NCBI GenBank assembly: GCA_963806535.1
Contig: CAWDYC010000008.1
Location: forward strand, 96,001-160,000
DNA: 64,000 nucleotides
Source of the DNA: Candidatus Bathyarchaeota archaeon
GTDB lineage: Archaea > Thermoproteota > Bathyarchaeia > Bathyarchaeales > Bathycorpusculaceae
Direction of reading: 5' to 3'
Shown here: positions 31,273 to 53,249 of the stretch, in pieces
Layout of the letters: every line of letters starts with the position of its first letter
Numbering within the stretch: the stretch's first letter is position 1
The notes under the pieces: generated by a model
What the model was told of the DNA's origin: nothing
Database searches by the model: none
Seen by the model: the letters and a program-made list of their open reading frames with translations, nothing else
Program-made: the position numbers and the translations under genes

Positions 31273-31294
31273 AGCAATTTTAAAACATGTTAGG

Positions 31295-31528
31295 ATAAAG
31301 GCATAAAATAATCTTTTCTGAAGAGAGGATTTCTGAGTTTTTTACGAACCTTTTCTGTTATTTTTCATACTTTTCTAACCTTTTTCGCACGTTTCTGTTC
31401 TTTTCCATTCATTTCTGTTCTTTTCTAACCTTTTCTTTACGTGACCTGCAAACACTGCAAGCCCTAAATCAAAAAAGCAACCTAAAACACAAAGATAAAA
31501 TTTCTGCACAAAAACCCGTCAATAACTG
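31295..31528. repeat. Dispersed non-coding element, copy 1 (end motif + ten 10-bp units + ~98-bp core)
   Basis: Core 31431-31528 matches the reverse complement of 53033-53128 at 88/98 columns by hand alignment; decamer array at 31341-31440. Confidence 0.9.
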
Positions 31529-31549
31529 TTCCTCTAATGACACTTTCGG

Positions 31550-31626
31550 AACGCAAAGAAACGCAATACAACGGGAATAAACGCATTTCAACGGGGAACA
31601 ACGGGAAAAAACGCAACTTGCAAACG
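31550..31626. repeat. Second 10-bp-period array (AACG-phased)
   Basis: AACG at 31550, 31560, 31570, 31580, 31590, 31600 and 31610, plus an off-phase copy at 31623. Confidence 0.85.
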
Positions 31627-31766
31627 CAGCAAACCCTGAACAGAAGAAACAACTTAAAACACAAATAACAGAATTTGTATCTTTTGAATTGTCTTTTATC
31701 ATGGACTATCTGGGTGGTGTTAATTTTAATAAGTCTCCCAATTAGTATTTCTTCTGAGCGAAGAAC

Positions 31767-33548
31767 ATGGATTACGCGGTTATAGCTGAAGCCTACGAGA
31801 AAATTGAAGCGACATCAAAAAGGCTAGAAATGACCGATCTGCTAGTAGACCTGCTTAAGAAAACGCCTAAAGAGGTCATGGCTAAGGTGGTTTATTTGAC
31901 GCAGGGTAAATTGTACCCAGACTTTATGGGCGTGGAGATGGGCATTGCTGAAAAATTAGCAATAAAAGCCTTAGCCCGAGCATCTGGACAAAGTGAAAGC
32001 TTTATTTTGTCTGAACTTCAAAAAAGCGGGGACATCGGTCAAACATCGGAGAAGCTTTTGGCTAAACGCAAACAATCCACCTTCTTTACAAAGAAGCTGA
32101 CTGTTGAGCATGTTTATGAGACGCTGGATAAAATGGCTAAAACCTCTGGTTCCGGCGCTGTTGACACAAAAATGGCGTTGCTCTGCAGCTTGTTAACTGA
32201 TGCTTCTCATCACGAGGCAAAATGGATAATGCGCACTGTAACAGCCAATCTGCGCCTCGGCATTGCTGATATGACGGTTCTGGATGCCTTAGCGATTGCG
32301 TATGGCGGAGGAAAAGAAGCCCGCAAACTTGTTGAACGTGCTTACAGCATCTCTTCTGACCTTGGTCGAGTTGCTGACGTGGTTGTCGAAAAAGGTGTGG
32401 ATGGAATAAAAAACTTCCAAGTTGCAGTTTTTGAACCAATAAGACCTATGCTGGCAGAGCGCTTGGCTTCGCCTGAAGAAATTTTGGAAAAATTCGGCGG
32501 CAAATGCGTAGCCGAATACAAGTACGATGGAGAACGGGTTCAAGCGCACAAGAAAGACGGCAAAGTAATACTATTTTCCAGACGGTTAGAAAATATTTCT
32601 AGCCAGTATCCTGATGCGGTGGAGTTGGTTAAGGAAAAGATTGATGCGAAAGAAGCCATTTTGGAAGCTGAATGTGTTGCTATGGATTTAGAAACTGGTG
32701 ACATGCGTCCATTTCAAGAGTTAATGCATCGAAGACGTAAATACGGAGTTGAAGAAGCCATTGAGCAATATCCCATTTCACTTTTCCCCTTTGACCTGCT
32801 TTATGTTGACGGTAAAGATTTAACCCTTGAACCGCTGCCCAAAAGACGAAAAGAACTTCAACGCATAATAAAGCAAACTGACCGCGTAACACCTGCCATT
32901 CATAAACTCGTTAGTAGTCCTAAAGAGCTTGAGGATTTCTTTGAAGAAGCCATAGAGAAAGGCTGCGAAGGATTAATGTGCAAATCCGTCTCCAAAGACT
33001 CAGTTTACCAAGCAGGCAACCGCGGTTGGCTCTGGATAAAATATAAACGCGATTACAAAAGCGAAATGACCGACACCGTTGATCTTGTGGTTGTGGGAGC
33101 TTTCCATGGCAGAGGAAAACGTGTGGGAGCATATGGTGCATTGCTCTTAGCCACTTACAACGATGAAAAAGACACATTTGAAACAGTTACAAAATGCGGT
33201 ACAGGCTTCACAGATAAAGACTTGGCAACGCTACATGAAACTCTCCAGAAACATATAATTCCCAAAAAGAATTCGCGAGTGGTTTCAATGATGCAGGCAG
33301 ATGTTTGGTTTGAACCCAGTTTGGTTCTTGAAATTTTAGGCGCGGAAATCACCCTCAGCCCAATTCACCCATGCGCTATGGATTCAATACGAAAAGGAAG
33401 CGGTTTGGCAATTCGTTTTCCACGTTTTACAGGTAAATACCGAACAGACAAAAGCCCCGAAGACGCAACCACTTCAAAAGAAATTGTAGAGATGTATCAA
33501 GGGCAACTAAAAAAAATCAGCGAAACACAGACCCCAGAGAAAAGCTAA
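31767..33548 (+). CDS. lig: ATP-dependent DNA ligase
   Basis: EYKYDGER, EGLMCK, WIKYKRDY, IRFPRF. Confidence 0.97.
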   Translation: MDYAVIAEAYEKIEATSKRLEMTDLLVDLLKKTPKEVMAKVVYLTQGKLYPDFMGVEMGIAEKLAIKALARASGQSESFILSELQKSGDIGQTSEKLLAKRKQSTFFTKKLTVEHVYETLDKMAKTSGSGAVDTKMALLCSLLTDASHHEAKWIMRTVTANLRLGIADMTVLDALAIAYGGGKEARKLVERAYSISSDLGRVADVVVEKGVDGIKNFQVAVFEPIRPMLAERLASPEEILEKFGGKCVAEYKYDGERVQAHKKDGKVILFSRRLENISSQYPDAVELVKEKIDAKEAILEAECVAMDLETGDMRPFQELMHRRRKYGVEEAIEQYPISLFPFDLLYVDGKDLTLEPLPKRRKELQRIIKQTDRVTPAIHKLVSSPKELEDFFEEAIEKGCEGLMCKSVSKDSVYQAGNRGWLWIKYKRDYKSEMTDTVDLVVVGAFHGRGKRVGAYGALLLATYNDEKDTFETVTKCGTGFTDKDLATLHETLQKHIIPKKNSRVVSMMQADVWFEPSLVLEILGAEITLSPIHPCAMDSIRKGSGLAIRFPRFTGKYRTDKSPEDATTSKEIVEMYQGQLKKISETQTPEKS

Positions 33549-33595
33549 AACTGATAAGCATCAACAGCTAAAATAAGGAGCAGGCGTGAACTTCG

Positions 33596-34216
33596 TTGTC
33601 TCAAGATACAGAAAAAATGAAATCGCTAATAGCATTCAAAAAGCGAATGGAAGACCAACTGGAAAAATTAAACGCTGAAGCAAAAGAAGTTCAAGCTGCC
33701 TTGGACACGGTTAACGGAATGTTGCTTGATAAAGGCTTCAAGCGTGGAGAAATCAAAGAAGTTCCTGAGATGCCTGTGCCAAGGGACGTAGTTTTGCCGA
33801 AGCAAGAGCTTGAGCCGCCGACAGTTGTAGTACAACGCGGTGCACCTTTGCAAACGGAAAAGGAAAGTGTAATTCCCCTAAAAACCATGGCTGAAGAGCC
33901 TTTGGCATTAATGTATTTTGAAAAGCAAGCCATCCATGTTTTGCCAGATGAAAGCAAAAACTTCAGCGTTAACACGCCGCCTTTCACTAATTTTCTTGTT
34001 GAAAAAGTCTTCGCTAAAATGCAAGAAAAAGATACAGAACTTGTCAAAACGAAACAGTTAGCAGCGGACAAAATGTTCTCATTTAACATTGTCCGTGAAG
34101 GCGACCAAATTCGCGAAATAGTAATAAAAAACGTAGATGAAGAAAGACTGAAGGAACTAAAGTCGAGCATCCGCTGGACTTTTGAGAAAATGTATGAAAA
34201 AATGAAAAGTGCCTAA
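33596..34216 (+). CDS. Hypothetical protein with N-terminal coiled coil
   Basis: 206 aa; TPPF..FLV.KVF, ELKSSIRWTFEKMYE; co-oriented with lig. Confidence 0.7.
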   Translation: MSQDTEKMKSLIAFKKRMEDQLEKLNAEAKEVQAALDTVNGMLLDKGFKRGEIKEVPEMPVPRDVVLPKQELEPPTVVVQRGAPLQTEKESVIPLKTMAEEPLALMYFEKQAIHVLPDESKNFSVNTPPFTNFLVEKVFAKMQEKDTELVKTKQLAADKMFSFNIVREGDQIREIVIKNVDEERLKELKSSIRWTFEKMYEKMKSA

Positions 34217-34217
34217 T

Positions 34218-34544
34218 TTACTGTGAATGCTTTTGCAATGTATCAACGATTTTGTTTTTAGGGCACAAACCAACAAGTCTTTCTGCTTCTTGACCATTTT
34301 TAAAAACAATCATCGTTGGTATGCTGAAAACCTGGAAGCGTTCAGCAGTAGATGGGTTCTCATCAACATCAAGTTTGCCAATTAAAATTTTGCCATTGTA
34401 TTCTTTGGCTAATTCCACAATGGTAGGAGCTAAAGCTCGGCATGGTCCACACCAATTGGCCCAAAAATCAACAAAAACCAAGTTGTTTTTCTTGATTGTT
34501 TCTTCGAAGTTTGCATCTGTTATATGAAAAGGTTCAGAACTCAT
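34218..34544 (-). CDS. trxA: Thioredoxin
   Basis: DFWANWCGPC, SIPT. Confidence 0.95.
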   Translation of the reverse strand: MSSEPFHITDANFEETIKKNNLVFVDFWANWCGPCRALAPTIVELAKEYNGKILIGKLDVDENPSTAERFQVFSIPTMIVFKNGQEAERLVGLCPKNKIVDTLQKHSQ

Positions 34545-34638
34545 TTATTTTGACTCCTTAATATAATAGAATTTAAGATTTCTGTGATATAAACCGTTCG
34601 TGATGCCTGAAGCGGGTTTTCTGTGGGTTAGATAAGCT

Positions 34639-35847
34639 CTAGAAACTCACGAAGTTGAATTTAATTATTGATACGACTCCCCATAGATTGACGAGCAAGC
34701 TTAGAATTATGAGGGCTTTTTCTGGCCAGGCCAAGTTTTCTCTCGTGCCCTTGGCTGTTAACAAAATGAGAAAAGGGGTAAAATCAAGGCTGAAACGGTA
34801 GCCAAACTGAGTAAACCCTACAGTGCCATGAGTAATTAAGGGTGGAAGGATACATAATACGGCTAAAGCAGAGTATTTGCTTAGTTTGTTCCAAGGACCT
34901 TTGAAGATATAGATAAATGCTGGCGTAGTGAAAAACAAGCCTAAACCCATCCATGATGGCTTAAAGTACGGAAATGAATTAAGCAGAATTGGTCCCTGGA
35001 AAAATATTGCGTAAATGTGTCTAGGAATATAGGCAATGTTAAAGATTCCCTGTAGGAAAAATTGATCCTGTTGGATTCCAGGTATAAGACCATATCCGGC
35101 ATCCAAAATTGTTCCGTAACGAGCAAAATTGTAAAGAAGATATAAAGTAACTGGTATTGCTATGCCTATGAAAAAATATGCTGCTTGCTTAAGTCTTGGT
35201 TTCCAAGATTCATTCGTCTGATAGATAAGAAACAAAAAGAATGGGAATGCCAAAGCCACTGGAAGTCGCGACAAAGTAGCAAAACCTAACAATAACCCAA
35301 CGAAAAAATTGTTCTTCTTATAAAAAGCCAGCACTATTGCAGATGTGAGAAAAAGAACCGCCGCAACCTCTTCAATGTACCATGATGAACCGACTGCGGC
35401 GGTGAACCAAAAACAAGTTCCAAATCCGAAAAGTGCGGTTAACCATAAGACTTTGCTTCCTTGTACTCCTGTTTTTTTGAGCATAAGCCATATGAGGGAA
35501 ACGGATAAACTTGCAAGAATTATGGAAATTACGCTTTGATCAATCGAAGTGCCAAAAACTGCTACAACAGGCATCAAAATCACGGCGGGCATGGGAGGGT
35601 AAACCACATAAAAGTTGCCGTTGAGGGGAACAAGTTCCTGCAATGAAGTTCCGGCACCCGTAACTCCCAATCTGCCATGAAGGAAAGCATCAGCTAAATA
35701 AACAAAATGATCCTGCCCAGGCGGCGGACCTTTAGACAACACAAAAATAAAGAAAGATACCAGAGCAATTAGAATAAATTTCTGGACAGTTCCCAAAGAC
35801 TCCATTTTTGAGACTACTCGCCGAAATCCCTGGCTGATTTTGTCCAA
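34639..35847 (-). CDS. Polytopic membrane protein, GT-C glycosyltransferase-like
   Basis: YLADAFLHGRL, YVVYPPMPA, YNFARYG, QFGYRFSLDF; about 11 TM helices. Confidence 0.65.
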   Translation of the reverse strand: MDKISQGFRRVVSKMESLGTVQKFILIALVSFFIFVLSKGPPPGQDHFVYLADAFLHGRLGVTGAGTSLQELVPLNGNFYVVYPPMPAVILMPVVAVFGTSIDQSVISIILASLSVSLIWLMLKKTGVQGSKVLWLTALFGFGTCFWFTAAVGSSWYIEEVAAVLFLTSAIVLAFYKKNNFFVGLLLGFATLSRLPVALAFPFFLFLIYQTNESWKPRLKQAAYFFIGIAIPVTLYLLYNFARYGTILDAGYGLIPGIQQDQFFLQGIFNIAYIPRHIYAIFFQGPILLNSFPYFKPSWMGLGLFFTTPAFIYIFKGPWNKLSKYSALAVLCILPPLITHGTVGFTQFGYRFSLDFTPFLILLTAKGTRENLAWPEKALIILSLLVNLWGVVSIIKFNFVSF

Positions 35848-35940
35848 TTATACTACCTATTGAATTCTGAATTCGTTAGAAAAGAATTTAAACATTCGTT
35901 AAATTTTCTCAAAAAAATCAGGCAATTCCTTTTATCAATG

Positions 35941-36372
35941 CTATTTGCAGGCCTTCATTTTCTCCAATAAAGCCTTGAACACAGCGTAAGAATTCTTGGG
36001 GTCTGAAATCTCTGAGGCGGCCTTCTCGAAGGGGCATACCCCAGTTTTCTTTAAGTCCAAAACATTATCTACCAACGTTTCCCACTGGCAAATGACTTTG
36101 TTTTCTTGGAAAAGGGCTTGGGCTTTTTTGCTTAAAACTTCCGCATAAACTTCATGTATCCCAGCATAAACGCACAGGAGTGCTAATGCTTTGCCAGCAA
36201 CTCGATCTGCAACTGAAGCGCCATTCAATTCCTTGCCTAGGGTGTCAATTGCATGAATGAAACCTGAGATTCTATGTGAATCAGTTTGAAAAAGCACTTG
36301 ACTATTTTTTACTATGGAAAGCGTTAGCTGCTTACTATAGAGCTGTTCTTTAGCGATTTCGAGGTCTTGCAT
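35941..36372 (-). CDS. DUF1893 (TM1506-like) protein
   Basis: VADRVAGKA.A, YAEVLS, CPFEK. Confidence 0.85.
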   Translation of the reverse strand: MQDLEIAKEQLYSKQLTLSIVKNSQVLFQTDSHRISGFIHAIDTLGKELNGASVADRVAGKALALLCVYAGIHEVYAEVLSKKAQALFQENKVICQWETLVDNVLDLKKTGVCPFEKAASEISDPKNSYAVFKALLEKMKACK

Positions 36373-36424
36373 TATTCTTCACCACTTTGGATGTCGGGTA
36401 GCATAAACGCAATTGTTTTTTGAA

Positions 36425-36856
36425 TTATTCAGCAGTAATTTTGAAAAGTTGATTCTCGGGCACTTCGGCAAGTTGCCAAGCATAAGCCTCTGTTAATTTA
36501 TCTTCTTTTTTCTTTTCCTCTATTGTCTCTCTAAATTTTTTGGCAAGTGTTATTTTCACTATTTTTCCAGTTTCTTCAACCATAAAAGTTGCTTGAATGG
36601 TTTTTGAGTTTTTAAATTGTAGACGTTGATTGCCAATTGTGCATGTTGTGGAAACTTGTATGCCGTCAAGCAAACAAGAAAACGGAGGGAATAACGGCAC
36701 AGCAACTTCTGCCCTCAGGTGCTCTATTTCAGTATTGGAAATGTTTAGTGTTTTTTTGGCTGCAGCACCCATCCTTAAGCCTATAACTAAGTAAGGTCCA
36801 ACGTGTCCATGAAGTTGGCGCGCGAATTCAATAATTGCTTGTTGTTCGGTTGGCAT
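36425..36856 (-). CDS. FmdE (formylmethanofuran dehydrogenase subunit E) family protein
   Basis: HGHVGPYLVIGLRMG, SCLLDGIQVSTTCTIGN; start at MPTEQQ. Confidence 0.85.
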   Translation of the reverse strand: MPTEQQAIIEFARQLHGHVGPYLVIGLRMGAAAKKTLNISNTEIEHLRAEVAVPLFPPFSCLLDGIQVSTTCTIGNQRLQFKNSKTIQATFMVEETGKIVKITLAKKFRETIEEKKKEDKLTEAYAWQLAEVPENQLFKITAE

Positions 36857-36870
36857 GGATGTTCGCTTTC

Positions 36871-37950
36871 TTAGTTGGTGTTTGTGTTTATTGAGGGTTG
36901 CTGTATGTTTTTGAATGGGTCGAGTTTGTCGTATTTTTTGTGGCGCCAGTACCCGAAGGAGAACAACCAAGAAACAACAAAGATACCTATTATACCAAAA
37001 CCCACCATCTCAAAATTAAGCGCGTGTAGCCAGCCCCAAAATATTCCACTCAGGTTTAGTTCATTTGATAGCACTTGCAAAAGTTCCAACGTGCCGATTA
37101 CCCATGCAACAAGTACCGAAATTACCGTGACGGTTAAGTTGTAATAAATCTTTCTAATTGGATTTAAGAATGCCCAGCCATAAGCCATACGCATTGCAAC
37201 ACCATCAGCGGTGTCCACAGTGACCATACCGCAAGTGAACAATAACGGCAGAATAAGAACGTAGTAAAGAGGAATACCTGTGGAAACGCCGATTCCAACG
37301 CTTATAGCGATAAGAGCAATTTCGCTAGCGGTATCAAACCCTAAGCCGAAGAGTACACCGACTGGGTAGATATGCCATGGTTTGCTTATGAGTTTGAACA
37401 GCGGCCGGAAGAAGCGGTTCATAAAACCGCGGTCTTGCAATAGATTTTCGAGCTCATCTGGATTCATTTTTCCCTGTTTTAGAGTTTGAAAAATCTTGTA
37501 TAAACCGATGACTATAACGGCGTTAATGAAGCCAATTATCCATAGGAAGCTTCCTGAGACCAAGGTTCCGATTACTGCGCCTGCATTTTGAAGCGCTGGA
37601 ATGTTGGCCGTAACAGTTCTTGTGGCAAAAATCAGACCGAGTATTAGAGCAACAACCACTGTTGAGTGACCAAGAGAGAACCACATTCCTACAGTGTAAG
37701 GGCGTTTTCCTTCTTGCATTAGTTTTCTTGTTGTGTTGTCGATGGCTGCTATGTGGTCCGCGTCTACTCCGTGTCGCAAGCCAAAGACGTAGGCTACGAT
37801 GCCTAAGCCGCCGAGGACAACGGCGATTTTTCCTATGACAAAAGCTGCAGAGAAACCGACTGCGGTGATTGTTAGGAGTGTGGTGAAGATTATGGCTATT
37901 TTGATTTTTTCGTTGCGCGAAAGCCCGAAGTTTGCAGATTTTGCCGTCAT
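36871..37950 (-). CDS. HoxN/HupN/NixA family high-affinity nickel/cobalt transporter (NiCoT)
   Basis: GLRHGVDADHIAAID, FSLGHSTVV, LFGLGFDTASE. Confidence 0.95.
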   Translation of the reverse strand: MTAKSANFGLSRNEKIKIAIIFTTLLTITAVGFSAAFVIGKIAVVLGGLGIVAYVFGLRHGVDADHIAAIDNTTRKLMQEGKRPYTVGMWFSLGHSTVVVALILGLIFATRTVTANIPALQNAGAVIGTLVSGSFLWIIGFINAVIVIGLYKIFQTLKQGKMNPDELENLLQDRGFMNRFFRPLFKLISKPWHIYPVGVLFGLGFDTASEIALIAISVGIGVSTGIPLYYVLILPLLFTCGMVTVDTADGVAMRMAYGWAFLNPIRKIYYNLTVTVISVLVAWVIGTLELLQVLSNELNLSGIFWGWLHALNFEMVGFGIIGIFVVSWLFSFGYWRHKKYDKLDPFKNIQQPSINTNTN

Positions 37951-37952
37951 GG

Positions 37953-37980
37953 GTAACACTTTTTTGAGTTTTAGTGTTAC
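37953..37980. promoter_or_regulatory. NikR operator
   Basis: GTAACACT-N12-AGTGTTAC (= GTAACA-N16-TGTTAC, 28 bp) between the minus-strand TATA TTTTATAT (~37986-37993) and the NiCoT ATG. Confidence 0.8.
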
Positions 37981-38031
37981 TGAGCATATAAAAGCTTTTA
38001 GGCACAACAAACACTTTTTACTTGACCATAA

Positions 38032-38439
38032 ATGTCAAAAGTCACCCGCGTAGGAGTAACGTTCCCGCCTGAACTTCTCAAAGACTTCGACGAAATCCTA
38101 AACAAAATGGGTTATGAAAGCCGCAGCAAAGCTATCCAAGACGCAGTTAGGTTGTATGTTTCTGATCGAAAATGGATAACAGAAGAAGAAACTGTCCAAA
38201 CAGGAGTGATACTTATGGTTTATGACCATGATGCGAAAGGACTGGAAAGCGAATTAACCGAAACGCAGCACGAACACTCCTCAATCATAACTTCAACCCT
38301 TCATATCCACATTAGCGAAAGAGACTGTTTAGAAGCCATAGCAGTAAAAGGCAAAGCGTCAGAAATACATCATTTAAGCGACGAATTAACAACCAGAAGA
38401 GGAGTAAAAATCCTCAAAACAACGATAGTAACCGTTTAG
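38032..38439 (+). CDS. nikR: Nickel-responsive regulator NikR
   Basis: RHH domain RVGVTF...GYESRSKAIQDA; QHEH, TLHIH...CLE nickel ligands. Confidence 0.95.
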   Translation: MSKVTRVGVTFPPELLKDFDEILNKMGYESRSKAIQDAVRLYVSDRKWITEEETVQTGVILMVYDHDAKGLESELTETQHEHSSIITSTLHIHISERDCLEAIAVKGKASEIHHLSDELTTRRGVKILKTTIVTV

Positions 38440-38510
38440 AACTCTTTTAAAAAAAATAAAGTTGAGAATTTTGTTTTTGCGAAAGTTGCGACTTTCAGTT
38501 TACCACTAAG

Positions 38511-40103
38511 TTACGTCTTTCTTCTTTTTCTCATTATGAGCACAATTGCAGGAGTAATTCCCACAATCAACAATGTCAAAACAACCATTGATGGAAACTC
38601 TGGTGCTAAAGGTGTTTGTGCAGGTGAGACTGAGGGAGAATTGGTTGGTGTTGCTGTTGATGTGGCTGGTGGCGACGTTGGCGTGGAAGCAGGCGAATTT
38701 GTAGGTGTTGGGCTTGCGCTAGCTGTAGGCGTCGGCGATGAGTCAGAGGTGAATACTGCGAAGATGGTTGTTGCACCATTAACGTTTTGGATGGGGTAAG
38801 AACTCATGGCGCCAACAGAAGTTCCATTCACTAAAACATCCGCTATATGAAAGCCGGTATTGGCGGTTATTGTAAAAGTTTTGCCGCCGCCATAGTTAAG
38901 GCTGACAATTCCGCTTGGAGAAATAGAGCCGCCAGCGCCAACAGTCGAATTTACAAATGTTGGGGCTTGAGTATTTGGTGCTGTCAAGAAAGGAATAAAT
39001 GACGTATTTCCGTAGTTAAAATCGTTTTTAAAGTCATAAATTGTCTGATTTATTGCTTGAATATTGTTTGTTCCCCACCAATTATAAGACGCGTTAATGT
39101 CTGCGGAACCGAGCACATATAGGTTGTATTGGTTCCCGTAAATGTTGTTGTACAAAATTAATGGTTTTGAACTAACGGTGCCTATTCCATAAGGATTACT
39201 ATTAATTGTATTATTTTCTACGATGCTGACGTCATTAGAATCTAGAAAAATTCCAAAGCTCCATGTGCCGTTATTACTACAAATTACATTTCGAATGATA
39301 GTATTGTTGGTTTGATAGAAAAAGTCGTTAGCGGAAGAAATCCCCATTTCCCAACCATAGATTGAATTGTCTATAATTGTTGCATTTCCAATCGAGTAAA
39401 CCCCATACCCAAGAGTGTTAATTCCTGACATTGTATTATTAGAAATTGTTGGCGAAGTTTGCCGTTCTATGGGTATGGCTTTAACAGTAATCCCGTTGGT
39501 TACCCTACCGGAGCAGTTCATAGTTATAGTGTTGCTTGAAATGATGGGTGAGCCGCCACTTACAATAATTGCCTCCTCATAGGAATTCTGGCTTTGATTA
39601 AAAGTGATTATGTTATTGTCAATTTTTGGGGATGCTCCATCAATTTCTACAGGTATATAGTTTAAGTTTGCATTTTGAATTATCGAGCCAGTACCTGTCA
39701 GCTCGTTCCATCTGCTGCTCCTGGAAGTAAACAGAATTTGATAACCTGAACTACCAGTATTAACATACCCAGGATAGCCTGAATGAACGTTTGAATTGCC
39801 ATTTATCACAATTGGATTATTTGATTGACCTCTGGAATCGAGGGTTCCATTTACTTGTAAATAATTCGTTCCAATGTTTACGATAACACCAGGTTGAATT
39901 GTTAAGGTTACGCCAGCATTAATGGCAATAGGTCCAGTAAATGTGTAAGGACTATTTGCTTGTGTCCAAGTAGTGTCTGAAGTAATTACGCCACTAACAT
40001 TGGTACCTGAACTCTGCGCTTCTCCGAAATGAACAGTCGTGACTAAAACCAAAGAAACAACAATTATGACAATCAATAATAAACTGAACAGTGACTTTTT
40101 CAT
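38511..40103 (-). CDS. Cell-surface parallel beta-helix (NosD-like) protein with Pro/Thr linker and PEF-CTERM sorting motif
   Basis: Signal peptide, SDTTWT..NSPY, Asn-rich beta-helix repeats, NASYNWWG, PEFP + TM helix + RKRRK. Confidence 0.8.
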   Translation of the reverse strand: MKKSLFSLLLIVIIVVSLVLVTTVHFGEAQSSGTNVSGVITSDTTWTQANSPYTFTGPIAINAGVTLTIQPGVIVNIGTNYLQVNGTLDSRGQSNNPIVINGNSNVHSGYPGYVNTGSSGYQILFTSRSSRWNELTGTGSIIQNANLNYIPVEIDGASPKIDNNIITFNQSQNSYEEAIIVSGGSPIISSNTITMNCSGRVTNGITVKAIPIERQTSPTISNNTMSGINTLGYGVYSIGNATIIDNSIYGWEMGISSANDFFYQTNNTIIRNVICSNNGTWSFGIFLDSNDVSIVENNTINSNPYGIGTVSSKPLILYNNIYGNQYNLYVLGSADINASYNWWGTNNIQAINQTIYDFKNDFNYGNTSFIPFLTAPNTQAPTFVNSTVGAGGSISPSGIVSLNYGGGKTFTITANTGFHIADVLVNGTSVGAMSSYPIQNVNGATTIFAVFTSDSSPTPTASASPTPTNSPASTPTSPPATSTATPTNSPSVSPAQTPLAPEFPSMVVLTLLIVGITPAIVLIMRKRRKT

Positions 40104-40274
40104 TCGCTCATCCGCGCATTGAGCTACGTATGAATGAGTTATATATTAACATTTACGACTTTGGAGTCAGTAACCGTTCCTAATTACAAAAAGAGGTTTT
40201 ATCCAAATTAGATAAATTAAGTAATTTTAAGAGAATAATTAATGAAATTAGGGTTTTAAAATAGTCGAAAAGAT

Positions 40275-41180
40275 TTAGACTTCAAACATGCGTTCCAATG
40301 AAGCTCTAGCCTTCTTCGCAACTGCGTCTGGAACTTTAACAACGTTCTTTTCTTCTTTTAGGGCAGCGTAGAGTCTGTCTAGCGTAGTGAGCTTCATGTT
40401 TGGGCAAACTGCTCCTTCATATGCTAAGTAGAAGTTTTTTTCTGGGTTCTCTTTCCTCAGGCGGTGTAGGAGACCTTCTTCTGTTCCAATTATGAAGTTT
40501 TCGGCATCGGATTCTTTTGCGAAACGACACATTTTGGATGTGCTACCAACATAGTCAGCGACTTTGCGCATTTCTGTACTGCATTCAGGATGAACCATAA
40601 CGGTTGCGTCGGGATGCTGCATTTTAAGTACGGTTATGTCTTCAGGCTGGAAGAGCAGGTGTGTCGGGCAGAACCCGTTTTCAGGAATAGGAATCAGCGT
40701 TTTTCCTGTTTTTTCTGAAACGTATTCGGCGAGGTTCTTGTCAGGGCCAAAAAGTATTGTGTCAGCATCAAGTGACTTTATAACTTCCACCGCGTTCGCG
40801 CTTGTACAGCAAACATCGCAGTGTGCTTTGCATGAAGCCAAAGTGTTAACATATAACACAACTGGAGCACCCGGATACTTGGCTTTAGCCCGTTTTATTT
40901 CGTCCACTGTTAACATCTGAGCCATCGGACATCTTGCGCCTAAACAGGGCAAAAGAACCTTCTTATCCGGATTCAAAATTGCAGCCGACTCAGCCATGAA
41001 ATCTACCGCTGAGAAAAGTATCATTTCAGCGTCTTTTTCCTGTGCTGCTTTGCGGCTTAACTCGATGCTATCGCCCACATAGTCGGCAATGTCCTGGATC
41101 TCTGACCGTTGGTAATTATGAGCCAAAATAACCGCTTTTTTTTCTTTCTTGAGCCTAAGGATTTTATCAACTAAAGCCAT
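40275..41180 (-). CDS. nadA: Quinolinate synthase
   Basis: ILAHNYQ, DYVGDS, FMAESA, CPMA, TSANA, HPEC, CPNMK. Confidence 0.95.
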   Translation of the reverse strand: MALVDKILRLKKEKKAVILAHNYQRSEIQDIADYVGDSIELSRKAAQEKDAEMILFSAVDFMAESAAILNPDKKVLLPCLGARCPMAQMLTVDEIKRAKAKYPGAPVVLYVNTLASCKAHCDVCCTSANAVEVIKSLDADTILFGPDKNLAEYVSEKTGKTLIPIPENGFCPTHLLFQPEDITVLKMQHPDATVMVHPECSTEMRKVADYVGSTSKMCRFAKESDAENFIIGTEEGLLHRLRKENPEKNFYLAYEGAVCPNMKLTTLDRLYAALKEEKNVVKVPDAVAKKARASLERMFEV

Positions 41181-41318
41181 ATTTTCGCCAAGTAGTGTTA
41201 AGTTGAAAATTAAAGAGGACAAATCAAGAGATATATGCTTTTACCTTTCTCTATAGAAGATTAAACCTAAAAAACAAAGAAAAACTCTCAATTTGCTTTG
41301 GCATATTATGTTTAGGAT

Positions 41319-42926
41319 TTATCCCGTAAAGTCAAAGACGAATATTCTTCTTGGGTCTGCACCAAAAGTGGCTTGATCTGATATTCCAGAAAAGTTGCCT
41401 GAATAATATATTTGCTCGTAGACTTGATGCAAGTCAAGTGTAGTGTTGAAATACGGCACGGTACTGCCGAACTCGTACATGAAAACGAATTTTACATTAT
41501 TCTGTTTGCATAAGCCAATAAACTCAGTTATATTGAAGTTTGGAGTATAGGTGTCAACTGGCAACGCTGGGTACTGATAGGTTTTGATTTGGGGTGCACC
41601 ATCTGCCCAGAGGTAGAAGCTTACCATATCTTGGCTAAAGTAATTGTAGGGGCATAGAAGGATGATGGACTGGTTTGTGGGATCATGGGCTACTACATAG
41701 TTTGTTGCTTGGCTAATTTCAATGTTAATGTCATTTTGTTTGACATTGTAGTAAATATCATTAATACTGTAAGCAATCGAAACAGACACTAAGACTATCA
41801 ATAAGGCAGCTGCCACTTTAGCGGCTTTTTTCCTGTTTATGCTTACACTTTGTATCCAAGTGTGGCGAAGTTTATCGTAAACAAACAACACAAGAACTGA
41901 AGCCGAGATTGCCAAAGCCGGAAACAATGTCAAAACGTAGCGCCATTCACGATTGGAAATCACAGTGAAAAACACGAAAACGCTGATGAACCAAACGAAA
42001 ACAAACTTGTCTTCCCTTTTCCTCCGCCAAACAAACAAGCCTAAACCAGTTAAACCTACAATATAGAGAAGCAGGGAAATCGGGTGTACATCACTGTAGG
42101 GCCAAACCATTTCTATCAGGTAAAATATTGGAATAGGAAAGCGAACGCTGTACAATGATCTTCCAGGATTTCCCATCTGCAAAGCGTACATCCATTGACT
42201 AAAAACGTATGATGCCATAACATGATAGACAATTATAAGCCAGGGAATAATCACAGCAAGCGCGGCGACGATAAGCAGCACAAATCTTGAAAACAACCGT
42301 TTAAGTTGGCCCCACCCCAATATCAGCATGCTAACAACCATTACCGCCAAAGCTGCAATGACCTGATACTTCGTTAAGAATCCAAAACCTAAAGCTAAAC
42401 CGCTCAAAACTAGCATCCAATTCTTTCTACTGGTTAACCAACGGAAAAAGAAAAACAAGGACAGCGTAAAAAAGAAGACAAGCATTATTTCCAGCAAAGC
42501 CAAACGTGAGAGCCAAAAGTAACCTGGCATGACGGCCAGGAGAATAGCTGAAATTAAGGCAGCTTTTCCGCCATACATGTTGTAGGCTAATTCAAAGACT
42601 ACCCAAAGTGAAAGAATACTGAAAACTGCAGATACAAGTCTGGCCGAGAAAAGGCTTGCTCCAAATAGGTAGAAGGATCCCGTAGTGAAAACTGAATAGA
42701 GCGGTGGGTAGAAAGAGTCGCGTACGAAATTGTTGTATAACCCATTTTTTAGTTCCATTGCGCCAGTTAATCGGGTGACTTCATCCCAATTCATAGGTTG
42801 GTTGGAGAGGATAAGTAGGAGCAGAATAAAGTATGCGAGTGCGAGAATTAGAAAGGCAATTCGCCACTTGTTTAAGGCTGCTTTCAGCTGAGTTAAGCGG
42901 GATCTTGAATTTGGTTTGTCAATCAT
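41319..42926 (-). CDS. GT39/ArnT-like membrane glycosyltransferase
   Basis: WDE, YPPLY, SARLVS, SRLALLE, LTKY, EWRY; polytopic. Confidence 0.85.
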   Translation of the reverse strand: MIDKPNSRSRLTQLKAALNKWRIAFLILALAYFILLLLILSNQPMNWDEVTRLTGAMELKNGLYNNFVRDSFYPPLYSVFTTGSFYLFGASLFSARLVSAVFSILSLWVVFELAYNMYGGKAALISAILLAVMPGYFWLSRLALLEIMLVFFFTLSLFFFFRWLTSRKNWMLVLSGLALGFGFLTKYQVIAALAVMVVSMLILGWGQLKRLFSRFVLLIVAALAVIIPWLIIVYHVMASYVFSQWMYALQMGNPGRSLYSVRFPIPIFYLIEMVWPYSDVHPISLLLYIVGLTGLGLFVWRRKREDKFVFVWFISVFVFFTVISNREWRYVLTLFPALAISASVLVLFVYDKLRHTWIQSVSINRKKAAKVAAALLIVLVSVSIAYSINDIYYNVKQNDINIEISQATNYVVAHDPTNQSIILLCPYNYFSQDMVSFYLWADGAPQIKTYQYPALPVDTYTPNFNITEFIGLCKQNNVKFVFMYEFGSTVPYFNTTLDLHQVYEQIYYSGNFSGISDQATFGADPRRIFVFDFTG

Positions 42927-43069
42927 TTTTCTCAGCGCTGCAAAGCCTGTTTTCTCAAACTATGAAAGGCATTCGATATAAAATCTTCCTAATTGAAGCA
43001 TTTTGCAGCTTTATTTACAAGTGAGAAAGGCTAAAATGTTTCAATGCAACAATTTGTCTGGGTTTAACT

Positions 43070-44110
43070 GTGCCTTATAATGAACTTAGAAAAGATTATT
43101 TGCTGAACCGTTGGGTTGTAATCGCGACAGAGCGAAGTCGAAGACCCACAGATTTTGTGAAGCAAAAGACTGAAAGTGTGCAAACGACGGTTTGTCCGAT
43201 GTGTGTAGGCAACGAGCACTTGACGCCTCCAGCCAGGATGCTTTATCTTAAAGAGAACGATGGAATAAATGTTGCTCAAGACCCGATGGTTGGCGAGCGC
43301 CCGAAAAACTGGCTTGTCCGCGTTATCCCAAACCTTTACCCAGCCTTCAGCCCACCCAAACAGCCTGAAGATACGGCACAAATTTTCAAGAATGAATGTT
43401 TGGGTGATGCAATTGGTGGTCATGAGGTTATTGTTGAATCGCCTAATCATGATGAGGATCCAGCTGACGCTGAATTGCCACAGCTTGAACTGGTCATACA
43501 CGCCTACATCGATAGGATCAGAGAGTTAAGCTCAAAGCCGTATGTAAAGTATGTCTCGATTTTTAGGAATTTTGGCAAAGAAGCAGGTGCCTCAATGTCT
43601 CATGCGCACAGCCAAGTAATTGCAACACCTATGGTTCCCCCGCTTATCCAAGAGGAAATGGGTGCAAGCAAAACATACTACAGAAAGTACAGGAAATGTG
43701 TTTTCTGCGAAATAATTGAGCGGGAAGCAAAGGGTCCAAGGCTTGTTTATGACAGCACTGACTTCTTGGTTTTTGCTCCTTACGCAAGCATTAATCCGAT
43801 GGAGTTTTGGATTGTTCCTAAAAAACACGCCGCCAACATCCTTGATATGACTGGTGCTGAAGTGGAGGGTCTGGCTAAAACACTCAAATTAAGCCTCAAA
43901 GCCCTAAAAGACCTGGTCAACGACCCGCCGTACAATTACGGTATACACTTAGCCATAAATGAAGAAGCAAAAGACTCCTATCACTGGCACTTGGAAGTTT
44001 ATCCTAAACTGTCAATTTGGGCAGGCTTCGAACTAAACACGGGAACATACATCAACACGGTTACGCCTGAAACAGCCGCTGAAAGCCTACGAAAAGCAAT
44101 AGCAACCTAA
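43070..44110 (+). CDS. galT: Galactose-1-phosphate uridylyltransferase (HIT-like)
   Basis: ERSRRP, CPMCVGNE, PNLYPA, GASMSHAHSQ, WAGFE. Confidence 0.9.
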   Translation: MPYNELRKDYLLNRWVVIATERSRRPTDFVKQKTESVQTTVCPMCVGNEHLTPPARMLYLKENDGINVAQDPMVGERPKNWLVRVIPNLYPAFSPPKQPEDTAQIFKNECLGDAIGGHEVIVESPNHDEDPADAELPQLELVIHAYIDRIRELSSKPYVKYVSIFRNFGKEAGASMSHAHSQVIATPMVPPLIQEEMGASKTYYRKYRKCVFCEIIEREAKGPRLVYDSTDFLVFAPYASINPMEFWIVPKKHAANILDMTGAEVEGLAKTLKLSLKALKDLVNDPPYNYGIHLAINEEAKDSYHWHLEVYPKLSIWAGFELNTGTYINTVTPETAAESLRKAIAT

Positions 44111-44180
44111 TTTTCTGTTTTGTCAAGGTTTCTGGACATCTAAATTAGCCTATCACAGTACCCGATTTACGCCTTTACTC

Positions 44181-44380
44181 AAAGCAGAAGAAGTGTGTTT
44201 TTTCTTGTTTCTTCTTCTTTTAAATCTGGAAGAAGGAGACGCGGACTCTTAAAGGAACTTAACAAAGAGGTAGAAGTAGGATGCGGTGTTTTTTCTTCCG
44301 TTCCTACTTCTTCTACCAGAAAAACAACAACACAGTACCACCACCAACTGTTGTTACTCTACATGCTGTTGTTCTTCTTT
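44181..44380. other. Cluster of hairpins, two sharing an identical loop sequence, between convergent genes
   Basis: AGAAGAAG/CTTCTTCT and AGAAGTAGGA..CGG/CCG.TCCTACTTCT stems, both enclosing GTGTTTTTTCTT; third stem ACAGT/ACTGT. Confidence 0.45.
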
Positions 44381-44431
44381 GAATAATATTTCTCAAAAAG
44401 ATTATGGAGCGGAGGTGCATGGGAAGTTTGC

Positions 44432-46492
44432 CTAAGTAGCCACAAATTGAGGTTTTATCATCAGAACGTCTTCAATATAGGCTCTTAGGGGCTCGGCTAC
44501 GCTCCATGCTTGTGAGATACATCCTCTTGGAGCGTTTGGCGAGTCACAGTCGTAAATTTCATTTATGGTTCCTAACCCTCCTTGATGAATTCCGAGGGTA
44601 AACAGGGGCAAAATAAGATTGTTCAAAGCATAGTCACGCGATTTAGCAGAGTAACCATTAACTCTCAAGTATGCTGTGACATATGGTCCTAGTAACCAAG
44701 GCCAAATTGTGCCGTTGTGGTAAGCTGTATCTCGGCTTCGTCGGTTACCGAAGCATTTGCCTGCAAATTTGGGGTCATCTAATGAGAGAGTTCTTAAGCC
44801 GTATGGTGTCACAAGTTCACGGTTTACTACTTCAACAACTTTTGAGCTTTTTTCTGAGTCAAGCATTGTGTAATCCAGTGAAACGGCAAATATCTGGTTC
44901 GGACGATCCGACGCATCTTTAGATTTGATATCAAGAACGTCAAACAGGCAGCCTTCTGCGGGATTCCAGAATTTTTCGTTAAAACTTTCGCGGGTTTTGT
45001 TTGCCATAGCTGCGTATTTTTCAGCGAATGAGATCTCACCGAACTTGTTTGCTAATAGCTCCATGATTCTAAGAGCATTATACCATAATGCTTGAATTTC
45101 CACTGCTTTTCCAGCTCGGGGAGTAAATTCGTCGCCGTCCACCGCAGCATCCATCCATGTAAGCTGTGGACCATGAACAATTAAGCCGTCATCACCCAAA
45201 CGAATACCAAAAAACGTGCCTTTCTGGTGGTAGTCTATTATTGATTGTAGGCTTTCCCAGAGCTCTTCTTTAACAAAGACAAAATCTCTAGTGTACTTCA
45301 GATATTGGAGAACTGCATTAATGTACCAGAATGTTCCATCAACCGTGTTGTAAGCTGGCTCAGCGGTCTTGTCCGTGACAAAATTGGGAATCAAGCCACC
45401 TCTGCAATACTGGATGAAGTTTTTTAGTATGTTTTTTGCTTCGTTGAATCTTCCAGTTACCAGCAACAGACCAGGAAAGGAAACAAAAGTATCTCTGCCC
45501 CATGATTCAAACCAGTGGTATCCTGCGATGATTGATTTTTGGCCGGCTGTGTTTTGTACAATAAAGGAGTCTGCGGCTAAAAGAATCCAGTTTAGCCAAT
45601 CACTCATGGGTACCTTGGTGTATTGGCGATAAAAGTCATTCAAGAGTTCGCTCTTTTGGTTCAACTCTTGTGTAAAAACATCAGTGCTAACAAATGTGTT
45701 TCCGAGCGAATCTAAGAATTCTCTCGCTTTCTGATACTTCTCATCAACGGAGGCAGTTATCGCAAATTGTTTCTCAGTTAGAGATGGAACTTGCAGTTCA
45801 AAATATCCCGGCTGGAAACAATCATCAGTGCTGCTTTCTTCCCGTTCCGCTTCATCACGGTAGAATAAACGGTCTACCCAGTTAAAATTCTCCTTAAATT
45901 CTCCGTCAGATGATTGGCAAACAAAAGTGGCTTGAGGACGCTCAAAGTTTACCTCAAAATCTTTTTTGCCGCTTTTTTGCGTAAAATCCAGTGGGTTTTT
46001 ACGTCGGTCAACCACAGTGTGGAAATATCTGCACGTTAAAAGGGGATAAATCCTTACTTTAACGTTAGAATTGTTCTGGTTATTAACATTATAAATTGAT
46101 GATACTGCGTTCTTGTTTTTAGGCATAAAAATTGTTTTATCAACTTTGATGTTGCCTAAATCGTACGAGTATTTTGGGTAAGGTACAATTGAAAATTGGC
46201 TTATTAGCTTGTGACCTTGCGGGTAGATTAAATTGTGAAAGTCGTTCGAGCCTAACCTGATAACATCGTTGTCAATAATCACGTCTTCATCGAGTTTTGA
46301 CAAACAAACAGTGCGATCGCCAGGTGGATGCAACGCAGCAACTAACAAACCATGATATTTCCTCGTGTTTATCCCGAAAACCGTTGATGATGCGTAACCG
46401 CCCAAACCGTTTGTAACCAGCCACTCCCGCTCTATAACCTCGTCGAAACGTGAAAGCGCTTCTTGAGTAAAGGTTATGGCGGGTAGCTTCAT
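44432..46492 (-). CDS. Amylo-alpha-1,6-glucosidase (glycogen debranching enzyme)
   Basis: REWLVTNGLGGYAS, AGYHWF..WGRDT, LTWMDA, YHNGTIWPW, QAWSVAE. Confidence 0.92.
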   Translation of the reverse strand: MKLPAITFTQEALSRFDEVIEREWLVTNGLGGYASSTVFGINTRKYHGLLVAALHPPGDRTVCLSKLDEDVIIDNDVIRLGSNDFHNLIYPQGHKLISQFSIVPYPKYSYDLGNIKVDKTIFMPKNKNAVSSIYNVNNQNNSNVKVRIYPLLTCRYFHTVVDRRKNPLDFTQKSGKKDFEVNFERPQATFVCQSSDGEFKENFNWVDRLFYRDEAEREESSTDDCFQPGYFELQVPSLTEKQFAITASVDEKYQKAREFLDSLGNTFVSTDVFTQELNQKSELLNDFYRQYTKVPMSDWLNWILLAADSFIVQNTAGQKSIIAGYHWFESWGRDTFVSFPGLLLVTGRFNEAKNILKNFIQYCRGGLIPNFVTDKTAEPAYNTVDGTFWYINAVLQYLKYTRDFVFVKEELWESLQSIIDYHQKGTFFGIRLGDDGLIVHGPQLTWMDAAVDGDEFTPRAGKAVEIQALWYNALRIMELLANKFGEISFAEKYAAMANKTRESFNEKFWNPAEGCLFDVLDIKSKDASDRPNQIFAVSLDYTMLDSEKSSKVVEVVNRELVTPYGLRTLSLDDPKFAGKCFGNRRSRDTAYHNGTIWPWLLGPYVTAYLRVNGYSAKSRDYALNNLILPLFTLGIHQGGLGTINEIYDCDSPNAPRGCISQAWSVAEPLRAYIEDVLMIKPQFVAT

Positions 46493-47382
46493 TAGGGCAT
46501 CAGCTTAGCTACGTTTTTGTCCCGTGGAACACAAAAATAATTGGCGACTGGAACACATTTTGTCCTGAACAATAGCAAATGTGGTTTTGTTAGTTTGTAT
46601 TCGGTGAGGGTTTCAGCGTAGCCCATGCCTTTAGCAAAAACCAGTTCAGCCGAATCATATACTTTCAGGAATTCAGGTGAAACTTCTTTTTTTTGCAAGC
46701 CAACTGCGTCGGTTCCTGTTGTTATTACATCATCAGCCAATTTGTCCATGTTTGATAGAGGGACATCCTCCATTGTGGCGTCGTTAATTACAGGTCCGCC
46801 TTTAACAACATAAATGACTTTTAAACCCATATTTTTTAATTGTTCAACTAGCAAAGTGTCAAAAACGATTTCGCCGGCATTATCCGCTAAATAAAGAACA
46901 GTGTTTGCTTTCTTTGCTAATTCGTAAGCTTTGTCAATATCATCAATGACTAAATCTTTTGACGCTGCTCTAAAACAAGCAGCTAAATCATTTAGTGTGA
47001 ATTTGTGCCCTGGAATATCAAATTCCATAATATTGCCTACGATTGCGCATAGACATGCTTTTTTGAATCGTTCTTGTTGATTGTTACTTGCTTCTACCAG
47101 TTTTTTTGCATGTGGCAGTATTTTGAGGGCTTTCTCGTTAGCTAACCGTTTGCTACGCAGGTAAGGGTCTTCGTTGCAGCTCAGCTGTTTTATTATGCGA
47201 TCCCTTTTTGTTCCTAATTCTGCGGCGACTGACGTGGATTTGAATTCCCGATTCAATAATTTAACAATTTCAGCCAGACATCTAAATCGAAGAGCAGGGT
47301 TTGTTGTGGCTTGATACGTTGCCACTTGCCCCCGAGAAAGCAAACACGACTCACATTCAGCTTCAACTTTCAAGACATTCAC
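46492..47382 (-). CDS. DUF89/ARMT1-like damage-control phosphatase
   Basis: ECESC, DPY, DNAGEIVFD, NDAT, KGMGYAETL, TKC. Confidence 0.88.
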   Translation of the reverse strand: MNVLKVEAECESCLLSRGQVATYQATTNPALRFRCLAEIVKLLNREFKSTSVAAELGTKRDRIIKQLSCNEDPYLRSKRLANEKALKILPHAKKLVEASNNQQERFKKACLCAIVGNIMEFDIPGHKFTLNDLAACFRAASKDLVIDDIDKAYELAKKANTVLYLADNAGEIVFDTLLVEQLKNMGLKVIYVVKGGPVINDATMEDVPLSNMDKLADDVITTGTDAVGLQKKEVSPEFLKVYDSAELVFAKGMGYAETLTEYKLTKPHLLLFRTKCVPVANYFCVPRDKNVAKLMP

Positions 47383-47387
47383 ACAAT

Positions 47388-48101
<714 letters not shown>

Positions 48102-48174
48102 TTACTAATATGATTTGCCTTAGAAAATACTATGAAGATAGGTTCTAACAAAAAATTAAGAAAGTTTATTTTAG

Positions 48175-49848: not shown

Positions 49849-49887
49849 TCGAGCAACCGCCGTTTAAAACTTAATTAGTATTACTCG

Positions 49888-49953
49888 ATGTCGTTCGACA
49901 TTTATATAACTAATGTTTTTTTGTAGACGTTTTGTCAAACGATTTGACTACAA
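49888..49953. promoter_or_regulatory. Palindromes flanking the TATA box of the TrmB-CBS gene
   Basis: ATGTCG-TT-CGACAT (49888-49901) abuts the TATA box; GTCAAA-CGA-TTTGAC at 49934-49948; direct repeat TAGACGTTTT twice. Confidence 0.45.
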
Positions 49954-49980
49954 CTAGACGTTTTTGCGCTAACAAGGTGG

Positions 49981-50643: not shown

Positions 50644-50798
50644 TACAGCTTTTCAACCTTAAACTATCAATGCCTTCTGATCTAAGCTATATTGCTTTTC
50701 CAAAAAATATTGTTAATTAGAAAAATCGTTGCAAAGCAGAACATATTGAAATTTTGGTTCGAGAGGGAAGGAGCAAGTTTTGTAGGCACTCTTGCGTC

Positions 50799-52810: not shown

Positions 52811-53032
52811 ATTTTTGAGCCCCAATAAACTATGTATTGTCACTACTCTAACTTAATAAACCGTTATGTTGCCTTAAATTGAAAGAAACGTATTTTTCTT
52901 TGTTATTGAGGGCTCTTACTTTGTTTGTTTAAAAAAACCCATAGTGTTCAAACAACCAACTGAACAAAAAATTGTTTATGGTCTAAAAAAGAATCTAACG
53001 AGCGCAATAGGCTTAAGACCCGCTCCCTATAG

Positions 53033-53249
53033 CGGTTATTGATGGGTGTTTGTGCAAATTTTTTCTTTGTGTTTTAGATTGCTTTTTTGATTTAGGGCTT
53101 GCGATGTTTGCAGGTCACGTACAGAAAAGTGTGGAAACATACAGAAACGTATGGGAAAGTATGGAAAAGGTTAAAAACGTACAAAAAAGTATTAAAAAGT
53201 CCGCAGGAAAAAAATCGAATCTTCAGTCGTGATGGGAAAATGCTTTTAT
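53033..53249. repeat. Dispersed non-coding element, copy 2 (inverted relative to copy 1; eight 10-bp units)
   Basis: Core 53033-53128, units from 53119 to 53198, end motif AAATC-N3-TCTTCAG-N4-GAT-N6-ATGCYTTTAT shared with copy 1. Confidence 0.9.

Follow-up and report, generated by a model that had tools for sequence, protein, structure and literature searches.

A genus-restricted family of dispersed units with a promoter-like core and 10-bp phased boxes in a Bathyarchaeia genome

Two inverted units beside the DNA ligase and Nop5 genes

The window, by which we mean the whole stretch of 64,000 nucleotides analysed here, carries genes for an ATP-dependent DNA ligase, Nop5, RsmB, and glutamine synthetase in the neighbourhood of two units that lie in inverted orientation to each other (Table 1). 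Each unit is composed of a T-rich core, an array of decamers in phase, and an end motif, and all three parts of copy 1 are present as the initial annotation had described them. Its account of an inverted copy at 53033-53249 also stands: when aligned globally, the two cores differ by 8 mismatches and one 2-nt gap (about 88 of 98 positions identical), and the copy continues with eight array units and the same end motif. In both arrays, Tandem Repeats Finder detects periods of 10, 20, and 40. Read on the minus strand, TTTGCAGGTCAC forms the end of the T-rich core of copy 1, and the last base of the conserved TTTGCAGG(TCAC) in this core is 31441. The weaker unit that stands in tandem upstream of copy 1 has a T-rich array of CGTT type with a 10-bp period at about 31616-31547.

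Table 1. Features of the two units and of the segment between them (window coordinates).
Feature	Position	Strand	Remarks
Segment inverted relative to the closest relative (G013)	31715..52930		ligase gene (31767-33548, +) to Nop5 gene (51494-52843, -)
Weaker tandem unit upstream of copy 1	31547..31678	minus	partial core 31678-31610
Copy 1 core	31528 down to 31441	minus	T-rich, promoter-like; GCAGG at 31449-31445
Copy 1 weak TATA-like TAGGGCTTGCAGTG	31466-31453	minus	TATA score rank 83/108
Copy 1 array	31440 down to 31341	minus	ten in-phase decamers, GTAY/GAAC/GGTT + GAAAA type
Copy 1 end motif AAATC-N3-TCTTCAG-N4-GAT-N6-ATGCCTTTAT	31332 down to 31295	minus	
Copy 2 core	53033..53118	plus	GCAGG at 53110-53114; TATA score rank 98/108
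Copy 2 array	53119..53198	plus	eight in-phase decamers; box type as in copy 1
Copy 2 end motif, same as that of copy 1	53212..53249	plus	

The end motif is private to these two copies, with only 2 matches genome-wide even when 4 substitutions are tolerated, and the best core match of copy 1 is copy 2 and vice versa, so that we read them as sister copies. They are gene-less units with a degenerate TATA-like sequence and would probably be weak promoters. The distance from core to end motif differs by about 15-16 nt between them; the 10-bp register, which the initial annotation had taken to be exact, is therefore exact within the arrays and lost before the end motif. Over about 9 nt, the last bases of this motif weakly suggest the ATGCC(T/A)YTAAC start of a family of 92-aa ORFs described below, and the HMM of that family gave no match at the end motif of copy 1. 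The box type of copies 1 and 2 recurs in the same genome at C6:40266, C7:79129, C9:10523, and C12:5097 and is also found in other species; it stands before an intact 92-aa ORF at C6:40063 and before such ORFs in relatives.

A family of about 110 units restricted to one genus

The genome (G000; 2.95 Mb on 12 contigs, about 40% G+C, 92% complete) holds many more such units than the two that had been noticed initially. By blastn we found 102 matches to the core; an nhmmer profile derived from 60 of them detected 119 at E<0.01, of which 110 passed E<1e-5. These 110 units are spread over all 12 contigs and both strands (53 plus, 57 minus). Their best-conserved core stretch is TTTGTTCTTTGTGTTTTAGGTTGCTTTTTTGATTTAGGGTTTGATTTGTTTGCAGGTTGCG, and the elements TTGCTTTTTTG and TTTGCAGG are identical in 90-99% of copies. 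The units form 72 clusters, 24 of which are tandems of 2-4 units with a spacing of 150-220 bp.

Judged by crude gene calls (longest ORFs of at least 100 aa), 100 of the 110 units overlap no ORF of that size, and every orientation relative to the neighbouring genes occurs. Many begin 15-70 bp past a stop codon or extend as far as that of a convergent gene, and 61 of the 110 are directed at the 3' end of a convergent gene. Only 9 carry the 92-aa ORF, and roughly 9 more lie at most 250 bp from a co-oriented ORF of at least 100 aa.

Adjacent clusters on a contig share their strand in 43 of 60 cases (binomial p = 0.001), and the units lean against the local majority gene strand (p = 0.026). Unit orientation is not linked to GC skew (p = 0.5), which leaves no support for the relation to replichores that the initial annotation had proposed to look for. 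On contig C10, 11 minus-strand clusters switch to 4 plus-strand clusters near 46-51 kb, and no origin-type genes were found at this switch. This contig (133 kb) has 17 units per 100 kb compared with 1-8 per 100 kb on the other contigs; its unit-dense region contains miscellaneous genes and apparent fragments of a beta-CASP/metallo-beta-lactamase gene (L265:7926-8465 and 9461-9760).

The longest composite is an 807-bp block of three units, each with a different box type, that is duplicated at 96.8% identity (C4:413328-414122 and C5:365172-365977). Within the block, a 63-aa zinc-ribbon ORF lies on the opposite strand (C4:413900-413712) and may resemble the LysW carrier protein. After the third unit of the block, C4:414158-414185 looks like a tRNA 3' end in reverse complement, with T-arm and acceptor stem, and could be an old integration scar.

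Among relatives, blastn detected the core in 17 of 24 genomes of the same genus, in none of 16 genomes from other families of the order, and, weakly, in a single one of 117 genomes across 69 other genera of the family. A scan of species-representative genomes with a core pattern returned 113 loci, 41 of them with a real core. When 80 of the 113 loci were inspected, 25 had cores, and all of these belong to records of Candidatus Bathyarchaeota or Bathyarchaeia; the 48 records of other taxa among the inspected loci contain no core. By these sequence comparisons, the unit family is specific to one genus of Bathyarchaeia, with about 110 copies in the genome studied here.

Arrays of boxes with a 10-bp period

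The best self-similarity lag within the range of 5-15 is 10 in 98 of 108 units, and mean self-identity over these 108 units at lags of 10, 20, and 30 is 0.49, 0.44, and 0.43, respectively, compared with 0.29 after shuffling. The arrays stand in a fixed register with the core, with boxes at constant positions of the 10-mers counted from GCAGG. A box consists of G and 3-4 specific bases, and the remaining positions are A/T-rich; each unit has 3-10 boxes of 4-5 bp separated by spacers of 5-6 AT-rich bases, which amounts to one box per helical turn. Sequence is uniform among the boxes of one array and differs between units: the most common type is GTCA (29 units), followed by GCAA (8), GTCT (7), GTAA, GGTC, GTAC, GGAA, and GACA (six each), GTGA and GACT (five each), and rarer types. 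No ORF is linked to several common types, among them GCAA, GTAA, GACA, and GACT, and with at least 12 box types for only 6 intact ORFs in this genome, there is not one regulator per box type.

Arrays at orthologous sites of G000 and G013 keep the period and the GTC, but the fourth base of the box and the number of boxes vary. Slippage of 10-bp units, instead of selection, could maintain the 10-bp period.

A promoter-like core

The core is T-rich and about 60-90 bp long, and in about a third of the units it contains a good archaeal BRE/TATA sequence (AAAGCTTAAAT); a near-invariant TTTGCAGGTTGCG comes next in the core. A AAAGCTTAAAT-like BRE/TATA sequence also precedes the tRNA genes of the same genome, and the matrix used for scoring was built from these sequences upstream of tRNA genes. 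In 36 of 108 units, the best forward-strand match falls at one fixed place, its end lying 8 nt ahead of the last base of GCAGG, and 24 of 108 units exceed the 95th percentile of the background on the forward strand versus 8 on the reverse strand. At the conserved position, the TATA-like score has a median of 2.6 and is above 5 in 36 of 108 units. Units that carry the 92-aa ORF mostly rank well by this score (1, 6, 9, 21, 47, and 49 of 108).

Given the usual distance from TATA to start site in archaea, the predicted start falls in the first one or two boxes, and we infer from this arrangement that the core may act as a promoter with transcription starting in the first boxes of the array. A Bacteroidetes-type promoter, suggested by a TnnTTTG sequence, was dropped because Nop5 and the ATP-dependent DNA ligase mark the host as an archaeon.

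A linked family of 92-aa proteins with a PhS018-like predicted fold

Several units are immediately followed by a 92-aa ORF starting with MPLTQRV, which is the gene found most regularly behind such modules. An HMM of this ORF family detected 6 intact and 3 broken loci in the genome, and all 9 lie directly behind a unit. A Pfam scan assigned the ORF to no MraZ or AbrB family, with a chance-level hit to TMP_3 (E 0.033) as its sole match. Its 67 database relatives are almost all unnamed, one of them from a Bathyarchaeota record, and a few are labelled as AbrB/PrlF-type antitoxin or MraZ by one source.

The AF2 model of the ORF has a pLDDT of 91.2, and its best fold match is PhS018 of Pyrococcus horikoshii (2glw; Foldseek E 2.8e-4, TM 0.72). 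Comparison of the two gives a VIA Z of 11.3 with an rmsd of 2.3 over 84 residues, relative to a Z of 7 or less for unrelated barrels, and a profile E of 0.029; MraZ structures match the model weakly (TMq 0.47). As modelled, the 92-aa ORF is a PhS018-like single-chain beta barrel of two halves from the AbrB/MazE/MraZ superfamily. To our knowledge, PhS018 has no demonstrated DNA binding and no known target DNA. The available portion of the source describes it as an archaeal single-chain relative of the AbrB, MazE, and MraZ swapped-hairpin DNA binders and presents its recognition of DNA as a prediction only (PMC4333400).

Because no conserved partner gene stands behind the six intact ORFs, we rejected a toxin-antitoxin module; an ORF listing of their surroundings shows no shared genes.

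Of 60 other genomes of the genus, 35 contain the ORF family, in many cases interrupted by internal stops. Among 24 genomes of the same genus scored for both features, core and protein are both present in 15 and both missing from 7, while 2 have weak core matches only and none has the protein only, a co-occurrence that is no statistical test since these genomes share ancestry. Over 30 ORF loci of the genus (6 of them from G000), 25 have an upstream match to the core HMM, and 23 show a best lag of 10 in the 100 nt before the ORF. Of 301 genomes across the class, 20 encode the protein, and these belong to 11 of 107 genera, G000 counted. Outside the genus, the core is unrecognisable, and the best lag before the ORF is 10 in 13 of 18 loci, which represent about 10 independent ones because they include three near-duplicate pairs. 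These arrays usually lie about 25 nt past a TTTAAAT- or GCTTAAAT-like sequence. Along the protein tree, the box is identical or similar among near relatives and different between deeper paralogues, a match that could be explained by co-inheritance of neighbouring DNA alone.

Units at an inversion and at breaks of synteny

Compared with the closest relative G013, whose DNA ligase is 96% identical, the segment between the two copies is inverted (Table 1). The inversion spans 21.7 kb, and its ends are copy 1 (with the weak unit) and copy 2 in inverted orientation. The order in G000 is 30570, a 183-aa ORF, copy 1 (-) with the weak unit, 31715-52930, copy 2 (+), and 53264. G013 instead has the equivalent of window positions 62096 to 53264 reversed, a unit-free junction of 131 bp, then 31715 to 52930, one unit, and 30570 downward. 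Its single unit in this region stands on the Nop5 side only and has a different (GTCA) array, and its ligase-side junction is without a unit.

The 183-aa ORF (window 30721-31272, +; no Pfam match) lies between the synteny block on the RsmB side and copy 1, and it is missing from the matching junction in G013, which is 236 bp long. Just beyond copy 2, where synteny with G013 sets in, there is a perfect 11-nt inverted repeat (CTTAGACGCAG / CTGCGTCTAAG, arms 37 nt apart, window 53292-53350), and one of its arms is found in G013 too. A further ATP-dependent DNA ligase, a paralogue with about 33% identity to that of the window, is present in most genomes of the genus; G000 gave one match only.

Two histories would produce this arrangement. 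A copy may have landed at the second junction and then recombined with its inverted counterpart, or a replicative event may have produced the inversion itself. The signature of replicative transposition was sought and rejected, as the predicted target repeat in the same orientation is missing at the junctions. At the other 25 loci of the genus, the upstream flank of the ligase gene carries neither neighbour within 1.5 kb and so gave no polarity for the inversion.

A unit is also present at one further locus (L023) in G000 and in G013, where there are two units, and absent there from G016, G019, and G020. The intergenic DNA of this locus is too diverged to define insertion ends. At two other loci, synteny with relatives stops at a unit.

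Comparison with known systems

[quoted passage not shown] Like the MraZ boxes of the dcw/mraZ operon, the arrays described here are direct repeats of a 4-bp box plus 6 spacer bases with a 10-bp period; at the nine ORF loci of G000 they would lie between a putative promoter and the gene of the putative regulator and would begin at the predicted start site, whereas copies 1 and 2 have no ORF. One array type is GTGT/GTGG. In contrast to MraZ with its 3-4 boxes at one locus per genome, there are 3-10 boxes at about 110 loci and at least 12 types. The 92-aa protein also differs from MraZ in not belonging to that family by sequence, the host is archaeal and its promoters are of TATA type, the units are not followed by dcw genes, and binding to the boxes is a prediction here.

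PhS018 has the same length as the product of the linked ORF (92 aa) and matches its predicted fold at an identity of 17-18%, and none of the titles in the literature found reports repeat arrays with it.

Plasmid iteron operators and centromeres such as parC/ParR and the omega heptads consist of short direct repeats by a promoter that are coated cooperatively by a small beta-sheet binder repressing its own gene. The units resemble them in having short direct repeat arrays next to a promoter-like sequence. Unlike the units, which are chromosomal and very numerous, plasmid centromeres adjoin partition ATPase genes; an ORF listing, with part of the neighbours scanned against Pfam, shows no conserved gene for a partition ATPase or filament protein behind the six intact ORFs.

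Putative mobile promoters, in the available portion of their description, are highly similar promoter regions upstream of unrelated genes in a genome (PMC3575422). The units are similar to them in this respect and differ in that most copies are gene-less and each has a variable phased box array. With REP/REPIN sequences and MITEs, the units share that they are short, non-coding, intergenic, lineage-restricted, and present in about 100 copies. Unlike those, they are directional, with a conserved head and a variable tail, and no palindromes, terminal inverted repeats, or target duplication were seen. A likeness to MITEs and non-autonomous insertion sequences also lies in the 110 dispersed copies and in sites that are empty in relatives (the ligase junction of G013 and the L023 locus in G016, G019, and G020).

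We found no description of such units in the literature searched, and none on tandem-repeat promoters of Bathyarchaeota or on AbrB proteins of Bathyarchaeia (supplements lay outside the scope of this search).

A promoter with a phased operator lattice as the preferred reading

We give about an even chance to the reading that the module is a promoter together with a phased operator lattice of a PhS018-like regulator family, which would have been amplified and diversified, mostly without its gene, in one genus of Bathyarchaeia. The small single-chain protein of the AbrB/MraZ superfamily that the 92-aa ORF encodes would occupy adjacent boxes along one face of the DNA. Once bound, it would mask the start site and control initiation in the way of MraZ on GTG(G/T)-N6 boxes. 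The module would then have multiplied by duplication and recombination, mostly without the gene, its box sequence would have diversified into a dozen types, and the units would come to mark points of rearrangement.

Among the possibilities that the initial annotation had listed, a protein-loading lattice fits best, given the in-phase boxes of 4-5 bp, the AT-rich spacers, the predicted start, and the link to an AbrB/MraZ-superfamily gene across the class. From sequence patterns and a structural model we infer binding of the 92-aa proteins to the boxes, promoter activity of the core, and a role for the roughly 90 orphan units. Most units drive no obvious gene, which is evidence against the promoter-operator reading.

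Alternative readings

Three rival readings retain considerable weight beside the preferred one. The first, rather unlikely in itself, is that the units form a non-autonomous mobile or recombinogenic element, in which the core is a recombinase or homology site, the arrays are accessory iterons, and the promoter-like features are secondary. It would fit the about 110 copies, their mosaic tandem combinations, the duplicated three-unit composite, the patchy presence in the genus (17 of 24 genomes), the unit-free ligase-side junction of G013, the presence or absence of a unit at the same locus (G000 and G013 versus G016, G019, and G020), and the ending of synteny at a unit in 3 further loci. Copies 1 and 2 also bound an inversion, as intramolecular replicative transposition would yield. 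However, the terminal inverted repeats of such an element are not seen, since copies 1 and 2 have only short and differing pairs in agreement with the initial annotation. Neither is the expected target duplication, in place of which the junctions, compared by eye, show a reverse-complement hexamer in the wrong orientation. No transposase or integrase is regularly adjacent to the units, as had also been noticed initially, and the neighbours of the six intact ORFs have nothing in common. ORF relatives on viral contigs number 0, the divergence of intergenic DNA prevents a definition of insertion ends, and recombination between 100-bp repeats explains the rearrangements without dedicated machinery. 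The earlier suggestion of a new non-autonomous mobile element is not supported in the sense of a classical MITE, given that shared terminal inverted repeats, target duplication, and viral relatives were not found. It survives as loose mobility, with units that are gained or lost between species and lie at synteny breaks. Likewise, the empty sites that it had asked for exist as unit-free sites in relatives, but target duplications were not seen, with no direct repeat in the expected orientation.

Two related candidates were discarded. A virus or plasmid origin was rejected on the same lack of ORF relatives on viral contigs and on 43 pattern matches that all failed in tblastn, and a larger mobile element carrying the units was rejected because the longest repeated block, of about 800 bp, comprises three units and one small gene.

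We see a small chance that the units are structural DNA, either bent DNA that positions chromatin proteins or a two-way terminator or insulator between genes. On the forward strand the core has 51% T and the array 39% A; runs of at least five T occur in 94 of 108 cores and runs of at least five A, which an opposing polymerase would meet as T, in 73 of 108 arrays, compared with about 20% of random 70-mers. In archaea, termination is signalled by oligo-T, and A-tracts that recur in phase cause DNA to bend. A polymerase arriving from either flank would thus run into oligo-T, and the unit looks insulated from flanking transcription, in line with the many units that lie close behind a stop codon or end at a convergent one. 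What this reading leaves unexplained is that boxes are uniform within arrays and different between them, that T-rich or mixed arrays exist (CGTT, GACT, and TGTG types), that TTGCTTTTTTG and TTTGCAGGTTGCG are near-invariant, and that the units are linked to one protein family.

It seems about equally improbable that the units are a family of small noncoding RNA genes, with the core as promoter and an unstructured, A-rich RNA of 10-nt motifs as product that might serve as a sponge for an RNA-binding protein or as antisense to the convergent gene. The units are self-contained, intergenic, and mostly without an ORF behind them, more than half point into the 3' end of a convergent gene, and the predicted start site places the array at the 5' end of the transcript. 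The repeat-bearing structured RNA that the initial annotation had considered found no support: Rfam 15 gave 0 matches at gathering score in the window, a permissive scan of 31200-31800 gave 4 matches at E 4.8-10 that are all far below gathering scores, and the mean folding z of three sub-regions lies near 0 on both strands (-0.13 to +0.29; 60 of 82 strong units). An exact period of 10 and a partner with the AbrB fold would moreover fit recognition of DNA better than of RNA, and the TATA-like sequence is weak in most units.

That a low-complexity intergenic stretch was duplicated by chance and is functionless, as an end motif and exact box order common to copies 1 and 2 only might suggest and as the initial annotation had granted for the case of just two copies not conserved in relatives, is practically refuted by 110 copies, units in 17 of 24 genomes of the genus, and phase in 98 of 108 units.

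Implications for Bathyarchaeia and the PhS018 family

Returning to the promoter-operator reading, its strongest form is a speculative one that we hold to be improbable for now: the genome would contain more than 100 copies of one portable promoter, each tagged by one of about a dozen box codes of 4-5 bp and read by diversifying miniature MraZ-like (PhS018-like) proteins, with the same units serving as recombination points. If true, the PhS018 family would have its first function, and archaea would possess a mobile, programmable promoter-operator of a new kind. PhS018-like proteins, structural curiosities so far, would gain a testable function and a target DNA. The principle of MraZ, one protomer per helical turn on phased boxes, would be carried to archaea and to a family of a hundred copies, and the variable box types would offer a natural series for how a small barrel reads DNA. 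With units at the break points of an inversion and of synteny, the family may also be a main driver of genome rearrangement in an abundant group of uncultured archaea.
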